Source of the DNA: a virus
Virus genome (UHGV): UHGV-0171041
Length of the DNA stretch: 17,633 nucleotides
Reading direction: 5' to 3' (one strand)
Notes under the pieces: generated by a model
What the model saw: only the letters and a program-made list of their open reading frames with translations
The model's database searches: none
What the model was told of the DNA's origin: nothing
Made by a program: the position numbers and the translations under genes
Shown: one piece after another, positions 1-16,001 of the stretch
Layout of the letters: each line of letters opens with the position of its first letter
How positions within the stretch are numbered: position 1 is the first letter of the stretch

Positions 1-47
1 ACAGGGAAAAACGCATTTTTATCGGCACTGAAAATATATTTCTGCAT
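1..47 (-). CDS. Probable tail fibre assembly protein, 5' end only (runs off window edge)
   Basis: Minus-strand ATG at 47..45, 2 nt after the H stop codon, opens a frame reading MQKYIFSADKNAFFPV that continues past position 1. Position matches P2 gene G downstream of H. Too short to confirm by sequence. Confidence 0.35.
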   Translation of the reverse strand, partial: MQKYIFSADKNAFFP

Positions 48-49
48 TT

Positions 50-1234
50 CTACCGTCCTATCGAAATATAACTGAATCTGTATTGCTGTGAGATATCACT
101 GGTTGCCACACGCCACGCTGAATTACTGATATGTTCAAAATTTACAGACAAAACCTGCGGGGCAGGATTCGACGGGTCTGACTGAACGGCATCAGACATA
201 ACACTGACTGAAACCATCGGCTGATTAGGGAATGGTATAGGGAAGTGTCCACTGATAAAGCGGGTCGTGTTTCCTGAAAAAGTGCCAAACTGAACAATAT
301 ATCCACCTGGTAGCCTGAACCATCCCGAACCAGAAGCGAATGCTCCCATATCCGGTATCTGATTATCTCCTGTGCCCACATTCCGTTTTGCCGCTTCTCC
401 CAAACCAAGGTATGCGAGAAGACCGGCAACATCCTTTCCACTCAAATGAGTCAGCGTATTGTCCAGCGGTTGTTTACCTGCCAGCGCATTGTTAATGGTG
501 GTGCTGAATTTCGGGTCATTGTTAATGGCCGCGGCAATTTCTTTCAGTGTGTCCAGCGTGGCTGGCGCGCCGTTAATCAGAGCGGTAATAGCAGCCTGAA
601 CAAACTCAGTGGTCGCAATCCGCGTGGTGTTATTTCCTGCGGCAGGCGTCGGCGCTTTTGGTTCTCCGGTAAATGTCGGATTATGTTTCTGCGCATACTG
701 GGTATGAGGGTCCTGTGCGGCAATGTGTTTGCTCATCTGGTCATCCACATACAGCCTTAATTCCAGGACTTCATCATCCACATATTTACGGGTCGCCAGT
801 ACCACCGACGGGTCGATTTTCAGCGTGATGGCTTCGGTATTCGTGACAACCAGAATCATGCGGATAGTCTGGGTGCGGCCACTGCCTTCCTGTAACAGCG
901 GTTTGTACGTTTCCGGGCAGTTCGCCACCGCAATGAGTACGCCTTCATCATCATAAAGCCCAATCTCACGGATCCAGAATCCGCCCTCGTTCTCAGGGAT
1001 GATTTGCTCCGCAATAATCTGGCTCTGGTTGTTCGGGTCAACACTCAGAAGATTCAGCGGCGCGATGCGTTTCTGGTTAATCAGTTTTATCTGTGCCGGG
1101 TCTGGTGTCGGCAAGACACCATTCGCATCACCAACGGCCATTTGCGTCAGATTCAGCTTACTGCCGAGCATCGTCGCGTTAGCCAGCCGTGCTGCGCCCT
1201 GATTAGTCAGAATGGCGTAGTATTTCACTGTCAT
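50..1234 (-). CDS. H: Tail fibre protein (gpH-like), 394 aa
   Basis: N-terminal region resembles the P2 gpH N-terminus as recalled (MAVGD..., GGFW.RE.GLYDD.G.LIAVAN...YKP...EGSG). C-terminal part differs and the protein is much shorter than P2 H (about 669 aa). Start overlaps the I stop (ATGA). Confidence 0.85.
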   Translation of the reverse strand: MTVKYYAILTNQGAARLANATMLGSKLNLTQMAVGDANGVLPTPDPAQIKLINQKRIAPLNLLSVDPNNQSQIIAEQIIPENEGGFWIREIGLYDDEGVLIAVANCPETYKPLLQEGSGRTQTIRMILVVTNTEAITLKIDPSVVLATRKYVDDEVLELRLYVDDQMSKHIAAQDPHTQYAQKHNPTFTGEPKAPTPAAGNNTTRIATTEFVQAAITALINGAPATLDTLKEIAAAINNDPKFSTTINNALAGKQPLDNTLTHLSGKDVAGLLAYLGLGEAAKRNVGTGDNQIPDMGAFASGSGWFRLPGGYIVQFGTFSGNTTRFISGHFPIPFPNQPMVSVSVMSDAVQSDPSNPAPQVLSVNFEHISNSAWRVATSDISQQYRFSYISIGR

Positions 1235-1842
1235 GCGTTTACTCTCAGGTTATCAATTAAATGAATGGCCGAGGCCGGGAAATAATCCCCTCCGACAATA
1301 ATGGCCTCCGGGGTGTAGGGATAAACCGTCAGGGCGTCGCCGTGATAGCATCCCGCACCGGCAAAAATGTTGCCGGTTGTACTTAAGCTGATAGCCAGTC
1401 CCGTCAGATGGCGGCTTGCCGGTTTTGCATCAGCAACGAGGCGCTCCAGCTCCTGATACATTTCCTCGGTAATACCCTGCTCAAGCACACCAACAACGAT
1501 ACGGAACGTCCCCGGCTCCTCGTTGAGCTGCCACCACTCCCTTACCTCAATCAGATAGCCGAGCGGCTCCACCACACGCCGGATTGCGCCTATAGTGCCC
1601 TTATGGCAGTGAATGAAATACGCATCGCGGATAACAGCGCGTTTTGTCGCTTCCGGCCACTTATCATCCCAGCGGTCAACCGAAAATGACCACGCCAGCC
1701 ACGGCAGCAGATTTGCCGGGCAGGTGTCCGGGTTCCACAGCTCACGAATACTGACCGGTGTTTTTTCAATTTCCGCACAGGCTTTTGCGGCGGCAACTTC
1801 AAGCGGCGATGAGCCGGTTGGCAGCAGTCGCGAATCACTCAT
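1231..1842 (-). CDS. I: Baseplate assembly protein gpI
   Basis: 203-aa ORF whose N-terminus (MSDSRLLPTGSSPLEVAAAKACAEIEKTPVSIRELWNPDTCPANLLPWLAW) matches P2 gpI as recalled. Lies between J and H as in P2. Confidence 0.9.
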   Translation of the reverse strand: MSDSRLLPTGSSPLEVAAAKACAEIEKTPVSIRELWNPDTCPANLLPWLAWSFSVDRWDDKWPEATKRAVIRDAYFIHCHKGTIGAIRRVVEPLGYLIEVREWWQLNEEPGTFRIVVGVLEQGITEEMYQELERLVADAKPASRHLTGLAISLSTTGNIFAGAGCYHGDALTVYPYTPEAIIVGGDYFPASAIHLIDNLRVNA

Positions 1843-3727: not shown

Positions 3728-3738
3728 AACGGGAAGGA

Positions 3739-3762
3739 TGCCGCCGGGTCATACCGGCGGCA
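3739..3762. other. GC-rich stem-loop in the S-V intergenic spacer (9-bp stem, 6-nt loop, no U-tract)
   Basis: tGCCGCCGG gtcata CCGGCGGCa is a perfect inverted repeat seen directly. No T-run on either strand, so not a canonical intrinsic terminator. Confidence 0.5.
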
Positions 3763-3793
3763 ATGTGACGATGAGGTGTCAGGAATGGCACAA

Positions 3794-11940: not shown

Positions 11941-12974
11941 TGAGCAAGAAAAAAGGGAAAACACCGCAACCTGCGGCAAAAAAAATGACCGCCAGCGCCC
12001 CGAAAATGGAGGCATTCACCTTTGGTGAGCCGGTGCCGGTACTCGACCGCCGTGACATTCTGGATTACGTCGAGTGCATCAGTAACGGCAGATGGTATGA
12101 GCCACCGGTCAGCTTTACCGGTCTGGCAAAAAGCCTGCGTGCTGCCGTGCATCACAGCTCACCGATTTACGTCAAACGCAATATTCTGGCCTCGACATTT
12201 ATCCCGCATCCGTGGCTTTCCCAGCAGGATTTCAGCCGCTTTGTGCTGGATTTTCTGGTGTTCGGTAATGCGTTTCTGGAAAAGCGTTACAGCACCACCG
12301 GTAAGGTCATCAGACTGGAAACCTCACCGGCAAAATATACCCGCCGTGGCGTGGAAGAGGATGTTTACTGGTGGGTGCCGTCCTTCCATGAGCCGACACC
12401 TTTCGCGCCCGGCTCCGTGTTTCACCTGCTGGAGCCGGATATTAATCAGGAGCTGTACGGTCTGCCGGAATATCTCAGCGCCCTTAACTCTGCCTGGCTG
12501 AATGAATCAGCCACGCTGTTCCGCCGCAAGTATTACGAAAACGGCGCTCATGCCGGATACATCATGTACGTCACTGATGCCGTGCAGGATCGCAACGATA
12601 TCGAAATGCTCCGCGAAAACATGGTTAAGTCAAAAGGCCGCAACAACTTTAAAAACCTGTTTCTCTATGCCCCACAGGGAAAAGCCGACGGCATTAAAAT
12701 TATCCCGCTCAGTGAAGTGGCGACGAAGGACGATTTTTTTAATATCAAAAAAGCCAGCGCCGCTGACCTGCTGGACGCGCACCGCATCCCCTTTCAGTTG
12801 ATGGGCGGCAAGCCGGAGAACGTCGGGTCGCTGGGTGATATTGAGAAAGTGGCAAAGGTCTTTGTCCGCAATGAACTTATCCCGTTACAGGACAGGATCC
12901 GCGAGATAAACGGCTGGCTCGGTCAGGAGGTCATCCGCTTTAAAAACTACTCACTGGACACTGACAACGGCTGA
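11940..12974 (+). CDS. Q: Portal protein gpQ
   Basis: 344 aa beginning MSKKKGKTPQPAAKKMTASAPKMEAFTFGEPVPVLDRRDILDY, recognised as P2 gpQ. Confidence 0.92.
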   Translation: MSKKKGKTPQPAAKKMTASAPKMEAFTFGEPVPVLDRRDILDYVECISNGRWYEPPVSFTGLAKSLRAAVHHSSPIYVKRNILASTFIPHPWLSQQDFSRFVLDFLVFGNAFLEKRYSTTGKVIRLETSPAKYTRRGVEEDVYWWVPSFHEPTPFAPGSVFHLLEPDINQELYGLPEYLSALNSAWLNESATLFRRKYYENGAHAGYIMYVTDAVQDRNDIEMLRENMVKSKGRNNFKNLFLYAPQGKADGIKIIPLSEVATKDDFFNIKKASAADLLDAHRIPFQLMGGKPENVGSLGDIEKVAKVFVRNELIPLQDRIREINGWLGQEVIRFKNYSLDTDNG

Positions 12975-13160: not shown

Positions 13161-13211
13161 CGCCCGCTTCGTGGGGCAGTTTTAATGCATATGAATGTAA
13201 ATTTAGAAACC

Positions 13212-13239
13212 ATACCAAGCCTAGATATAGGCTTGGTAT
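13212..13239. terminator. Perfect 11-bp-stem hairpin between cos and the 99-aa ORF, possible terminator for that ORF
   Basis: ATACCAAGCCT agatat AGGCTTGGTAT seen directly. On the minus strand it is followed by a U-rich stretch (GGUUUCUAAAUUU), about 50 nt after the ORF stop. Confidence 0.45.
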
Positions 13240-13288
13240 TTATTCAGGAATTGTGAATGCAAAATAATGCAAGAATATGCATTATTTA

Positions 13289-13588
13289 CTACTTAGCCTT
13301 GATAACTGGATGAGCCCGGTCATGGCCCCCTCCCAAGAACTTTGAAAAAATCACCTTATCATTACTCACTGGTTTACTACCATACACACTATCGTAATGA
13401 AAAAATACTTGTGGTTGGTTTGGTATACGAATGAAACCATAAGCTAGGTTTTCCTTCCGTACCAACCCAATATCAGTAGCTATAGCCACTGGTAAGGTTG
13501 AGACACGACGCACTGAGGATGCTATATTTTTTCGATGTAGCCATCCGTGAATATGCTCATGAAGGATTTCGTAAGAATCACGGCTCAC
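13289..13588 (-). CDS. Hypothetical 99-aa protein in the AT-rich cargo island between cos and gene A; HEHIH motif near the N-terminus
   Basis: Open frame of 99 codons from GTG at 13588..13586, preceded by a perfect AGGAGG at 13598..13593 (4-nt spacer). No in-frame ATG. About 38% GC. Sits where P2 carries orf91-tin-old. I do not recognise the sequence. Confidence 0.55.
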   Translation of the reverse strand: MSRDSYEILHEHIHGWLHRKNIASSVRRVSTLPVAIATDIGLVRKENLAYGFIRIPNQPQVFFHYDSVYGSKPVSNDKVIFSKFLGGGHDRAHPVIKAK

Positions 13589-13631
13589 ATTACCTCCTAG
13601 TTACTTTGATAGACCAAAGAGTTAGCTTACA

Positions 13632-13661
13632 AAAATAGAGCGGGAATGCCTAGTGTTTCAA
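13632..13661 (-). promoter_or_regulatory. Candidate sigma-70 promoter for the 99-aa ORF
   Basis: On the minus strand, TTGAAA (13661..13656), an 18-nt spacer, then TATTTT (13637..13632), about 45 nt upstream of the GTG start. Assigned by eye only. Confidence 0.3.
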
Positions 13662-13718
13662 TCGATTTTTGTGAGAATTGGTTATTTAATAACTATATAA
13701 AAACATTGGAATTTACCA

Positions 13719-16001
13719 CTAATTCCAGTTAGCAAAAAGCCCCCATTCCTCTTGCGAGCGCTCATTAAAACTATAATATTTTCCTTCGTAAAAGAGTGTA
13801 GCTCCGCGAGCTAGAGCAAGAAGCAGCCACCTTTCCACCGCAACCCCCTGCTGAGCGAGGTCTACGCGGATACGGGTAATTTGCATTCGTTCTGACCGGG
13901 TCAGTCTGGCCGATGGTGCAATTTCATGCGGTTTTAACGGGCTTCCATTTCTTTGCTGACGGTTTGGCGTTCTCAGGTCGTATTTTAATGCGCCCCTGAG
14001 CGCCCTCACGACCTCCGGTTCATTCCATTCAATAACACCGTCATCAACCAGATTAAGCACTGCTGCGGCGTGCTCAGAAGGAGTGGGAGCCGGTAACGAA
14101 GTATCACCGCTGGTGAGCTTTCCACAGTTATTGACAGGACTCCGAGGCGCGGCGATGCCGCTTTTTAAAGTCAAAGGCTCAACGACCGGAACTTTCGGCA
14201 CAATGCGCCAGTCCGTGGTTCTGGTGATATGAATATGACGCGCGCCGAGATGCGGTGCGTAAATGCCGACCACTCTCTCGACTTCTTCCTCGTACTCGTT
14301 AACGTCATCCGACGGGCTACGGGCGACTCTGACAGTCTGACAATCGCGCGGAACATTTGCCCCACCCTGCGCGCTGATATACAACGCAAAATCACCACTG
14401 TCTGCAGCGGCGCGTGCAGCCTCGACGCGCTCGTCAAACTCATCAGCAATGCTGACGCCGCGCGGCAATTTGCGTAGTTCACGGTAAGCCCCCATTGTCG
14501 GCAGGCCAACCGTTTTAAATTGCGGGATGCGCCACGTTGACGCCCATGCGGTAACAGCCGCTGCAGTGTCTTTCAGCGGCCTGCCGGTGTCGTTATCGAG
14601 CTGACCATCCAGTGCATAGCCGTCGATGTTTTTTGAAATGTATTTCGCGATATATCCCGCAGCACCGCCCCGGTTAAGGTGTTTTGCCTGAAAACGGTTT
14701 CGCGCAGCTCCTCTTTCGTCTCCATCCTCTTTGAGCGCGTAGCGACGCATGATTTCGATAATCTGGTTACGCTGGCGTGGATTACAAAAAAGCATCATAT
14801 GCCAGTGCGGCGTTCCGTCGTGGTGTGGTTCAACAACACGCAAACCGTAGACCTGTAAATCATTATCCTTGAATGCCGTGCGCATCAGGCTCCAGATACG
14901 GCAGAGATAACGCTGCGCATCCTTTGGATTAAATGCCTCATCGTTCCAGCCGTGATTAAGCTGAACGGTTTTACTTTCGCCTTTTCTGACCTGACGTGTC
15001 GGGTGATACTTTGACGGCGCGGTCAGCGTGATAAACATCCCCACATCACCCTCTGCGGCGGCGTAACGCTCAATACCGGCAATGGTGTTCATCAGCTCCA
15101 TCCGGCGAATTTCAGGATTAGAAATACTGCCCATCACCTTACTGATAAGGTCGATGCGCTCGCCGGTTTCCTTGTTTTCAAGGTCACACGATTTAAGAAA
15201 TTCCAGATTTGCCTGGCGGCGCGCACGCACATCACGAATGGCATGTTTACTGGCATAAGGAGAACGGTCTTTATTGACCTCCCCGACAGCAATCAGTAAC
15301 GCCTCATGCCAGCGCATACGCTGGCCTTTAAGCTGATGAGTCCACCACTCATCGTTAAACAGGCGGGCAATGGCAGAATATGCCTGCCTCGTGGTCATCT
15401 GCCCTTTACGGTATTTTTTCCAGTAAAGCGGGGAAATATTGAAAGCACGTGCAGCGCCAGCAACATGACCATAGAGGTGAGCCTGCGCCTCATCCGTAAA
15501 CAGCGATTCTTTTTCGCCATGTGCATCAACCCAGGCATCGCAGAGTTCCTCATACATCATGAAAAGCTGCGATGAGATACGGGCAGCAAACTTTTTCAGC
15601 TCCTTGTCATTCATCCCCGGCAGGCGCGCATACTGGTCGCGCTCTGCCAGAAACAGCAACGACGCGTCGGTGTTCATTTCATGGCGCTGATTCACACGCT
15701 CAATGCGCGGCCATAAACGACGCTGAAAAGTGGATGTGAGGAAATAAAACCCGTGCACCGGGCTTTTATTGCGCCGGATGTAGTCATAGCGTGAAGTAAA
15801 CAGCGAGCGCAAAAAGTAAGGCAGGCGGTTAATCGTGGATAAAACACCTTGCACCTGACGCATCTCGTCACGTGTAAGGGGTCTTTCGCGCCCGACGGCC
15901 TCGCGTGGCGCGTTCCATGCATAAGCACCGGTAAACGTCTTACCGGTGCCTGCGGCAAATGCTGACGGAGGGACAAAATGCCCGGAGGCTTTAACGGCCA
16001 T
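13719..16001 (-). CDS. A: Rolling-circle replication initiator gpA (HUH endonuclease family)
   Basis: Start placed at MAVKASGHFVPPSAFAAGTGK (ATG at 16001..15999), matching the P2 gpA N-terminus. Contains the HUH motif PHWHMMLF and the tyrosine pair GYIAKYISK. About 760 aa, as for P2 A. The last 25 or so codons are AT-rich. Confidence 0.92.
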   Translation of the reverse strand: MAVKASGHFVPPSAFAAGTGKTFTGAYAWNAPREAVGRERPLTRDEMRQVQGVLSTINRLPYFLRSLFTSRYDYIRRNKSPVHGFYFLTSTFQRRLWPRIERVNQRHEMNTDASLLFLAERDQYARLPGMNDKELKKFAARISSQLFMMYEELCDAWVDAHGEKESLFTDEAQAHLYGHVAGAARAFNISPLYWKKYRKGQMTTRQAYSAIARLFNDEWWTHQLKGQRMRWHEALLIAVGEVNKDRSPYASKHAIRDVRARRQANLEFLKSCDLENKETGERIDLISKVMGSISNPEIRRMELMNTIAGIERYAAAEGDVGMFITLTAPSKYHPTRQVRKGESKTVQLNHGWNDEAFNPKDAQRYLCRIWSLMRTAFKDNDLQVYGLRVVEPHHDGTPHWHMMLFCNPRQRNQIIEIMRRYALKEDGDERGAARNRFQAKHLNRGGAAGYIAKYISKNIDGYALDGQLDNDTGRPLKDTAAAVTAWASTWRIPQFKTVGLPTMGAYRELRKLPRGVSIADEFDERVEAARAAADSGDFALYISAQGGANVPRDCQTVRVARSPSDDVNEYEEEVERVVGIYAPHLGARHIHITRTTDWRIVPKVPVVEPLTLKSGIAAPRSPVNNCGKLTSGDTSLPAPTPSEHAAAVLNLVDDGVIEWNEPEVVRALRGALKYDLRTPNRQQRNGSPLKPHEIAPSARLTRSERMQITRIRVDLAQQGVAVERWLLLALARGATLFYEGKYYSFNERSQEEWGLFANWN

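Follow-up and report, generated by a model that had tools for sequence, protein, structure and literature searches.

The tail-fibre gene H, which encodes 394 aa on the reverse strand at positions 50 to 1,234 of the stretch of DNA analysed here (17,633 nucleotides of the viral genome UHGV-0171041, hereafter the window), is in our reading the constant-plus-variable fibre gene of a P2-like (Peduovirus, pro483-type) E. coli prophage equipped with a Din-family (Hin/Gin/Cin/Pin) inversion switch at the place where P2 has H, G and fun(Z); we assign this reading a probability of about 0.9. Codons 1 to 276 of H are constant, and everything 3' of codon 276 lies on an invertible segment of 1,897 bp, of which the window holds positions 1-407 and the remainder was read from other contigs. 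The segment displays the anatomy of such a switch, the alternative fibre end fuses in frame to the constant part, and both states are found in nature. Din-family invertible fibre systems have been described since the 1980s, and the switch reported here is already known in kind and is an ordinary example of it.

The open reading frame at 50-1,234 translates into the protein whose peptides had been quoted in the preliminary description of this DNA, and its best PHROG matches are tail or tail-fibre families. Its first 150 residues (785-1,234, reverse strand) form the baseplate-attachment domain of the gpH family (Phage_tail_fib, PF12571; E = 3.7e-61, profile positions 1-150 of 150 covered). A constant shaft follows (aa 151-276; 409-784, reverse strand), delimited by BLASTP and by a structure match and carrying the fibre motif NPTFTG...ATLDTL...NALAGKQP that is common to H and P2 H; compared with H, the shaft of some relatives contains one additional 74-aa copy of this unit. 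In a search of solved structures with the H sequence, the shaft motif matched the tail-collar fibre 9d93 (E = 7.5e-7), and nothing was retrieved for the tip. Identity to the fibres of Escherichia phage pro483 and Salmonella phage MET_P1_103_31 is 96-97% across this constant part (aa 1-280; 97% to pro483 H within the N-terminal domain), and the fibre of Gemsvirus 500465-2 is 96% identical over aa 1-259.

The variable tip Sv (aa 277-394 and the stop codon; 50-408, reverse strand), as defined by its Pfam domain and by comparison with P2 H, lies within the invertible segment and ends in a gp53-like C-terminal domain (PF21882; aa 307-394, window positions 53-316), the match covering the whole profile (1-84 of 84) above the curated cut-off (E = 5e-8). 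Over aa 281-394 it is 98% identical to the tip of a 215-aa side tail fibre from SKA5, a phage whose baseplate is of the Mu/e14 type, and only 36% identical to the tip of pro483. A homologue search with the tip returned nearly exclusively near-identical enterobacterial sequences and no distant relatives, and most of these homologues are silent fragments of 131-132 aa. An AlphaFold2 model of aa 262-394, built from an alignment of 12 sequences whose members are 67-90% identical to the query, was too poor to be used (mean pLDDT 55, pTM 0.43). Two bases past the stop codon of H, at window position 46, the tip-specific assembly (chaperone) gene U starts with MQKYIFSADKNAFFP on the same strand and leaves the window after its first 15 codons (positions 1-46), as seen both in the sequence and in the contigs. 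The complete gene, which the preliminary description had advised looking for 5' of the window, is present in contigs L001 and L013 to L017 and encodes a 146-aa Caudo_TAP protein (PF02413, E = 1e-34) with 56% identity to TfaP of the element e14.

The same advice had extended to invertible fibre segments, and one is indeed found there. The invertase, the second crossover site and the genes U' and Sv' all lie outside the window and were read from other contigs. One of them, L017 (ENA ERZ894232 NODE_26, 194 kb), is 100% identical to the window over the comparable 5,234 nt, continues past the window into U, U' and Sv', and stops at the second site. The contigs that display both the invertase and the second site (L001, L013, L014, L015 and L016) are 98-99% identical to the window; L001, whose coordinates minus 12,000 give those of the window, is E. 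coli LT2-3, whose sequence agrees with window positions 1-1,300 without a single difference. The exact 394-aa H occurs on 11 contigs, and in all four that have enough flanking sequence it is followed by U, U', Sv', the invertase and the sheath gene, in that order. Among complete E. coli genomes, the closest to the window is 98.1% identical over 96% of its length, and an identical one was not found.

On the strand opposite to H, U' encodes a 197-aa Caudo_TAP protein with 61% identity to TfaE of e14, and Sv' corresponds to a fibre fragment of 189/190 aa, the alternative tip proper being of the tail-collar type and about 172 aa long. The fragment matches tail-collar PHROGs (E = 1e-51), shows a weak Pfam match to Collar (PF07484), and is 41% identical to the StfE fragment of e14. 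The Sv' cassette is promoterless; Sv'-U' and Sv-U converge, and each tip is accompanied by its own Caudo_TAP chaperone. Because the two tips belong to different domain families (the gp53-like PF21882 for Sv, a weak PF07484 Collar match together with tail-collar PHROGs for Sv'), they are likely to bind different receptors.

Just outside the second site lies the gene for a small serine recombinase of the invertase subfamily (197 aa; Resolvase and HTH_7 domains in Pfam), which thus adjoins the segment as is typical of Din-family systems. It is 97% identical to the invertase of pro483, 86% to PinE, 78% to Cin and 77% to Gin; the N-terminal catalytic-serine motif VRVST is invariant across the alignment of these invertases, and the protein matches the Gin structure 3uj3 (E = 1e-94). 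The stretch equivalent to the enhancer annotated in cin (nucleotides 19-90) is identical to pinE at 61 of 72 positions and to cin at 56 of 72. This conservation agrees with the presence of a Fis-dependent enhancer, yet the stretch is also coding sequence and coding conservation alone could explain it.

Two crossover sites border the segment. The first, a 26-bp Din-family (pix-like) site of the form TTCTCCCAAACC-AA-GGTATGCGAGAA, is found at window positions 395-420 and belongs to the strongest inverted repeat of the region (L001 10498-10524 with 12394-12420, the latter being window 394-420; arms of 26-27 nt spaced by 1,869 nt). Its partner, TTCTCCCAAACC AA CGTTTAAGAAAA, adjoins the invertase on the reverse strand (L001 10498-10523). 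The site in H lies within the fibre reading frame and spans codons 272-280, with its central AA (407-408) inside codon L276. The inner half-site codes for G277-L-G-E280, so that both alternative tips start with GLGE. Across 25 kb there are exactly two copies of the 14-nt half-site TTCTCCCAAACCAA, in inverted arrangement, where chance would give 0.10, which makes a fortuitous repeat on the H side unlikely. When up to 2 mismatches were allowed, these were the only two sites in 25 kb, with no extra sites of the shufflon kind as known in one EPEC P2-like prophage, and we therefore regard the system as a simple two-state switch. As to the other inverted repeats detected in the region, one (I2) reflects homology between the two convergent chaperone genes in a C-terminal motif, and three (I3 to I5) are short.

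Among the Din-family sites compiled in the literature (PMC3241671, Table 3), pixL reads TTCTCCCAAACC AA GGTTTTCGAGAG and pixR reads TTCTCCCAAACC AA CGTTTATGAAAA. The inner half and AA core of both sites described here are identical to these two, and the invertase-proximal site agrees with pixR at 25 of 26 positions. The outer half-sites are unlike each other (GGTATGCGAGAA versus CGTTTAAGAAAA), as they also are in e14. The same inverted pair of half-sites flanks the segment in e14, pro483, SKA5, MET_P1_103_31 and X14-3.

Inverting L001 in silico at the two cores yields an uninterrupted reading frame of 452 aa (H'), in which aa 1-280 are unchanged and are followed by GAPAIGVPFFWPSAAMPDTV...RAK. 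Among 5,426 complete E. coli genomes, 48 contain the corresponding flipped junction (1,300-nt query, at least 80% covered) and about 22 contain the native one at the same minimal coverage, so that this particular combination of constant part, Sv and Sv' is an infrequent one. A query made of the whole flipped segment with both flanks (2,276 nt) is colinear at 98.4% identity with IAL7250 and three relatives, at 97.8% with AMSCJX04, and at 99.3%, in two joined pieces, with PSS-08-2. In X14-3, the annotation shows a fibre gene of 452 aa, followed by U', U and, beside the recombinase, a silent fragment labelled 'gp53-like'. In MET_P1_103_31 the Sv-U cassette is in the silent orientation and a long H' is annotated, the phage being colinear with the inverted L001 over 2,998 nt (97.4%); it should be noted that MET_P1_103_31 and X14-3 each have only one of the two cassettes of this prophage. 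The two orientations are thus seen between genomes, rather than within one culture.

A hint as to the sequenced culture itself comes from the end of L017 (...TTCTCCCAAACCAA), which falls exactly on the AA core of the site next to the invertase, the point from which the sequences of the two orientations would differ. A contig break at a crossover core is how assemblers behave with a mixed population. The position of this end therefore suggests that the sequenced culture contained both orientations, although it could also be a coincidence of the assembler, as the junction on the H side was assembled through. In related systems, invertible loci of the P2-like prophages of EPEC E2348/69 flip in culture, as established by sequencing and PCR (PMC4272514), and inversion of the Fels-2 tail-fibre gene by the adjoining pin homologue fin has been noted (PMC7953296).

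The tip and its chaperone also appear to travel between phages. The DNA of the Sv-U cassette is 98-99% identical in unrelated backbones (SKA5, Gemsvirus 500465-2, Klebsiella and Salmonella phages), and wherever it occurs in E. coli, Klebsiella and Salmonella phages an invertase adjoins it. The GLGE-coding stretch of the half-site is common to P2-like, Gemsvirus, Mu/e14-type and Klebsiella/Salmonella prophages. This level of DNA identity, together with the identical half-sites, fits a sharing of cassettes across backbones. One could go further and imagine that the GLGE-coding inner half-site is a universal docking point for swaps of tip-chaperone cassettes between co-resident unrelated phages, with Pin-type enzymes acting in trans maybe contributing, or that the fibre variants shield the lysogen by receptor blocking as claimed for StfE2 of e14; we consider such extensions speculative and rather unlikely.

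The transfer of cassettes also lends itself to a rival account, in which tip and chaperone were acquired once horizontally and the inversion apparatus is a non-flipping fossil, leaving the prophage with a single fixed specificity. The near-identity of the tip cassette in unrelated phages does speak for horizontal transfer, and cassettes have been reshuffled among relatives, MET_P1_103_31 and X14-3 sharing one each with this prophage. Yet the invertase gene is intact and its product close to the active PinE, both cores are AA and the inner half-sites identical, and both alternative reading frames and both chaperones are intact and in frame. Moreover, prophages that have both cassettes at 98-99% identity display the opposite orientation, L017 ends precisely at a crossover core, and comparable P2-like prophage loci flip in culture. 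We therefore hold a static mosaic to be very unlikely, and retain the functional two-state switch as the explanation of the H locus.

A close counterpart of this switch is the P segment of e14 in E. coli K-12 (stfP-tfaP / tfaE-stfE, with PinE), which has the same layout: constant part, site, tip, chaperone, second chaperone, second tip, site and invertase. It measures 1,797 bp versus 1,897 bp here, and has the inner half-site and core in common with our prophage, along with the invertase (86%) and the pixR-like invertase-proximal site (25 of 26 positions). Since U resembles TfaP, U' resembles TfaE and Sv' resembles StfE, the segment can be regarded as a homologue of the e14 P segment grafted onto a fibre base of the P2 family. 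The elements that carry the two segments differ: e14 is a defective lambdoid element in which the constant part is short, whereas the segment described here belongs to a P2-like prophage that appears complete, and its constant part is the N-terminus of a gpH of the P2 family. The tips differ as well, StfP of e14 showing no detectable similarity to Sv.

This kinship raises the question of whether the switch benefits the lysogen, in addition or even primarily, through a fibre protein made from the prophage that blocks a surface receptor and thereby inhibits the adsorption of other phages. A defence role of this kind has been reported for StfE2, an inversion product of the e14 P segment, along with inversion in trans by other Pin enzymes (PMC12529663), and the half-sites and the TfaP-, TfaE- and StfE-like genes of our prophage would make it a candidate for the same. 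However, the late V operon of this prophage, which looks complete, closes with H and its chaperone gene; according to the P2 annotation, the corresponding operon of P2 depends on activation by Ogr and stays silent in lysogens. The lack of detectable similarity between Sv and StfP likewise argues against a transfer of this role, which we regard as highly improbable here. A switch between two virion fibre tips accounts for the locus better.

As for the classical systems, the G segment of Mu with Gin and the C segment of P1 with Cin follow the same principle, S being composed of Sc and either Sv or Sv', with U or U'; an invertase gene lies immediately beyond the segment, and the crossover sites are 26 bp long around a core of 2 bp. 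Their invertases are 77-78% identical to ours, the stretch of the invertase gene that holds the enhancer in cin is conserved in sequence, and the gene order of Mu is the same as here. By contrast, the segments of Mu and P1 are 3-4.2 kb long with much longer tips, the core dinucleotide of Mu is GA instead of AA, and identity between the tips and chaperones does not exceed some 30-35%, being limited to the chaperone C-termini. Within the Peduoviridae, an invertase is carried by pro483, MET_P1_103_31, Gemsvirus 500465-2, Fels-2 (Fin) and the P2-like prophages of EPEC E2348/69. Of these, pro483 shares with the present prophage the constant part of H (97% at the aa level), the invertase (97%), the sites and the position between genes I and FI, but has a largely different tip and a U that is 68% identical. 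A literature search retrieved no characterisation of the fibre switch of pro483. Annotated database entries for pro483 and further Peduoviridae nevertheless already show this architecture, the behaviour of which has been measured in the EPEC prophages.

P2 itself has no invertase, and carries fun(Z) at that place. Its H gene likewise follows V-W-J-I in the late operon, and H shares with it the full-length PF12571 domain, the gene order V-W-J-I-H and one shaft motif, which places our protein in the gpH family. The resemblance ends there, as neither the C-terminal receptor-binding region nor the chaperone is related to its P2 counterpart. With 394 aa versus 669 aa, H is much shorter than P2 gpH, and BLASTP aligns only aa 26-280 of it, in pieces (41% identity over aa 26-259; 42% over aa 175-280, corresponding to P2 aa 246-364), the duplicated shaft stretch of P2 H (roughly P2 aa 150-250) being missing. 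For aa 281-394 no significant alignment to P2 H was obtained (best E = 0.6), nor for U to P2 G (E = 0.24). Because only aa 26-280 align with P2 gpH, and neither the remainder of the protein nor its chaperone does, H can be called a short mosaic. The preliminary description was therefore right on the reduced length, on the foreign C-terminal region, which covers about the last 115 aa, and on a downstream gene unlike G. Its P2-like N-terminus holds at the level of the family (PF12571), but not as a close match: at about 41% identity to P2 gpH, the N-terminal domain is, judged from its sequence, a diverged allele of the gpH family and not near-identical P2 sequence. That H might instead have arisen from P2 H by internal deletion, keeping its C-terminus, the scenario named at the outset as the one that would overturn the mosaic, has practically no probability left and was rejected: the missing duplicated stretch explains part of the length gap, but the C-terminus matches no part of P2 H and falls into another Pfam family (PF21882), the chaperone is unrelated to G, and nucleotide homology to P2 is already over in gene I.

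The window is otherwise colinear with P2 at 95-98% nucleotide identity except in three places, the first of which is positions 1-1,405. The earlier statement that every other structural protein closely matches its P2 counterpart is thus not quite accurate, since gpI departs from it. Homology to P2 at 95% nucleotide identity stops at position 1,406, inside gene I (1,231-1,842, reverse strand; 203 aa), whose 3' 175 nt (1,231-1,405) belong to the non-P2 module formed by the end of I and H. Identity between gpI and P2 I is 82% across 175 aa; beyond these the C-terminus differs, gpI being 27 aa longer than its 176-aa counterpart in P2. As P2-grade homology ends inside gene I, gpI is atypical too, and the differing unit comprises the 3' end of I, H, the chaperone and what lies onward; P2 homology restarts beyond the segment, just upstream of the sheath gene FI. 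By sequence comparison, this block takes the place of H, G and fun(Z) of P2. The exchange of a receptor-binding module that had been proposed is borne out insofar as the C-terminal module and its chaperone are foreign to P2 and exchangeable, but instead of a permanent substitution the tip is one of a pair carried by an invertible segment. A different host range resulting from the tip exchange, also proposed, is a reasonable inference by analogy with Mu and P1.

By analogy with Mu, P1 and e14, the switch would operate in the lysogen, where the invertase would pair the two sites on supercoiled DNA with the help of Fis and of an enhancer near the start of the invertase gene. As described for Gin, Cin, Hin and Pin, it would introduce 2-bp staggered cuts at the identical AA cores and exchange the strands by rotation. 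Inversion would fuse Sv' in frame to the constant part, giving the 452-aa H', and silence Sv and U. As inversion would take place in the lysogen, lysogenic cultures would become mixed populations of the two orientations. Upon induction, only the cassette joined to the constant part would be expressed, and virions would carry either one tip or the other, so that the two-tip switch would amount to host-range bet-hedging.

The current understanding of such switches is unchanged by these observations, which add a standard member to a known system, and their consequences are mostly practical. In annotation, H should be described as Sc plus Sv, one state of a two-state gene, and the ORFs of 131-190 aa adjoining invertases that are labelled 'phage tail protein' or 'gp53-like domain' are silent halves and not separate genes. 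The quality of assemblies is concerned as well, crossover sites tending to break contigs. Finally, with two receptor-binding tips available to this prophage, the H allele that happens to have been assembled does not reveal its host range, and the existence of both tips bears on host-range prediction and on the engineering of phages or tailocins.

The constant shaft of the tail-fibre protein H (394 aa, positions 50-1234 of the window, minus strand) differs in length among relatives by a single unit of 74 aa (222 bp), which spans approximately positions 460-680 of the window (residues ~185-258 of H). The loci compared were those of E. coli PSS-08-2 (L020 2927-4507), where the flipped fibre H' reaches 526 aa, and the one cited for the fibre of 500465-2, another member of the Peduoviridae (L008 1037-2542), in which this 74-aa stretch is duplicated. 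The size of the unit is shared with phage P1, where the constant part of S is annotated with the 222-bp repeats b1 and b2. Downstream of the fibre tips, the chaperone genes U and U' are convergent and overlap by 29 nt (11607-11635 of L001, the E. coli LT2-3 locus). The second inverted repeat found in this locus, I2 (L001 11554-11697), was rejected as a recombination site, as it corresponds to the homologous C-terminal motifs of U and U' on opposite strands.

Compared to the e14 serine invertase PinE, the invertase (L001 9849-10442) carries a C-terminal extension of 13 aa. On the FI side, homology to P2 restarts in the terminal ~20 nt of the invertase ORF (L001 9849-9869), placing the insertion junction inside the gene's 3' end, immediately upstream of the pF activator site. 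An ENA contig of 194 kb with 100% identity to the window (L017, ERZ894232 NODE_26) breaks off precisely at the AA core of the crossover site beside the invertase (L017 6712-6725), ~1.5 kb past the window's 5' end. Such an ending at the crossover core is what sequencing a culture with both orientations of the segment would be expected to give.

Elsewhere in the prophage, the locus corresponding to P2 tin/old is reduced to ~660 bp (13190-13850), versus 3.4 kb in P2, where the replaced stretch consists of the 3' end of A, orf91, tin and old; gpA is here 774 aa long, with a non-P2 3' end. An ORF within this stretch (99 aa, 13289-13588, minus strand) had no match in a Pfam search and is probably a remnant, since its PHROG matches are only fragments of longer families, among them one with a serine-threonine kinase annotation. 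Further E. coli prophages of the same type have varied cargo at this locus (1-5 kb), which includes an AAA ATPase, a ParB-N protein and IS elements. The non-essential P2 orf30 and its flanks (~940 bp between S and V in P2) are also missing, the two blocks of P2 homology being spaced by 64 bp (3728-3791).

Database entries containing the tip Sv (proteins P0002-P0083, alignment A3) are mostly ORFs of 131-132 aa, labelled 'phage tail protein' or 'gp53-like domain-containing protein'. The N-terminus of these ORFs begins outside the invertase-proximal site (e.g., MPVSRN..IFLNVGLGE). They are silent copies of the cassette that have been annotated as independent genes. In E. coli PSS-08-2 (L020), the entire two-cassette segment is present, flipped and 99.3% identical, in a different Peduoviridae backbone, and the invertase is neighboured by tail genes rather than by the sheath gene. 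It is the complete switch, and not single tips alone, that moves between backbones.
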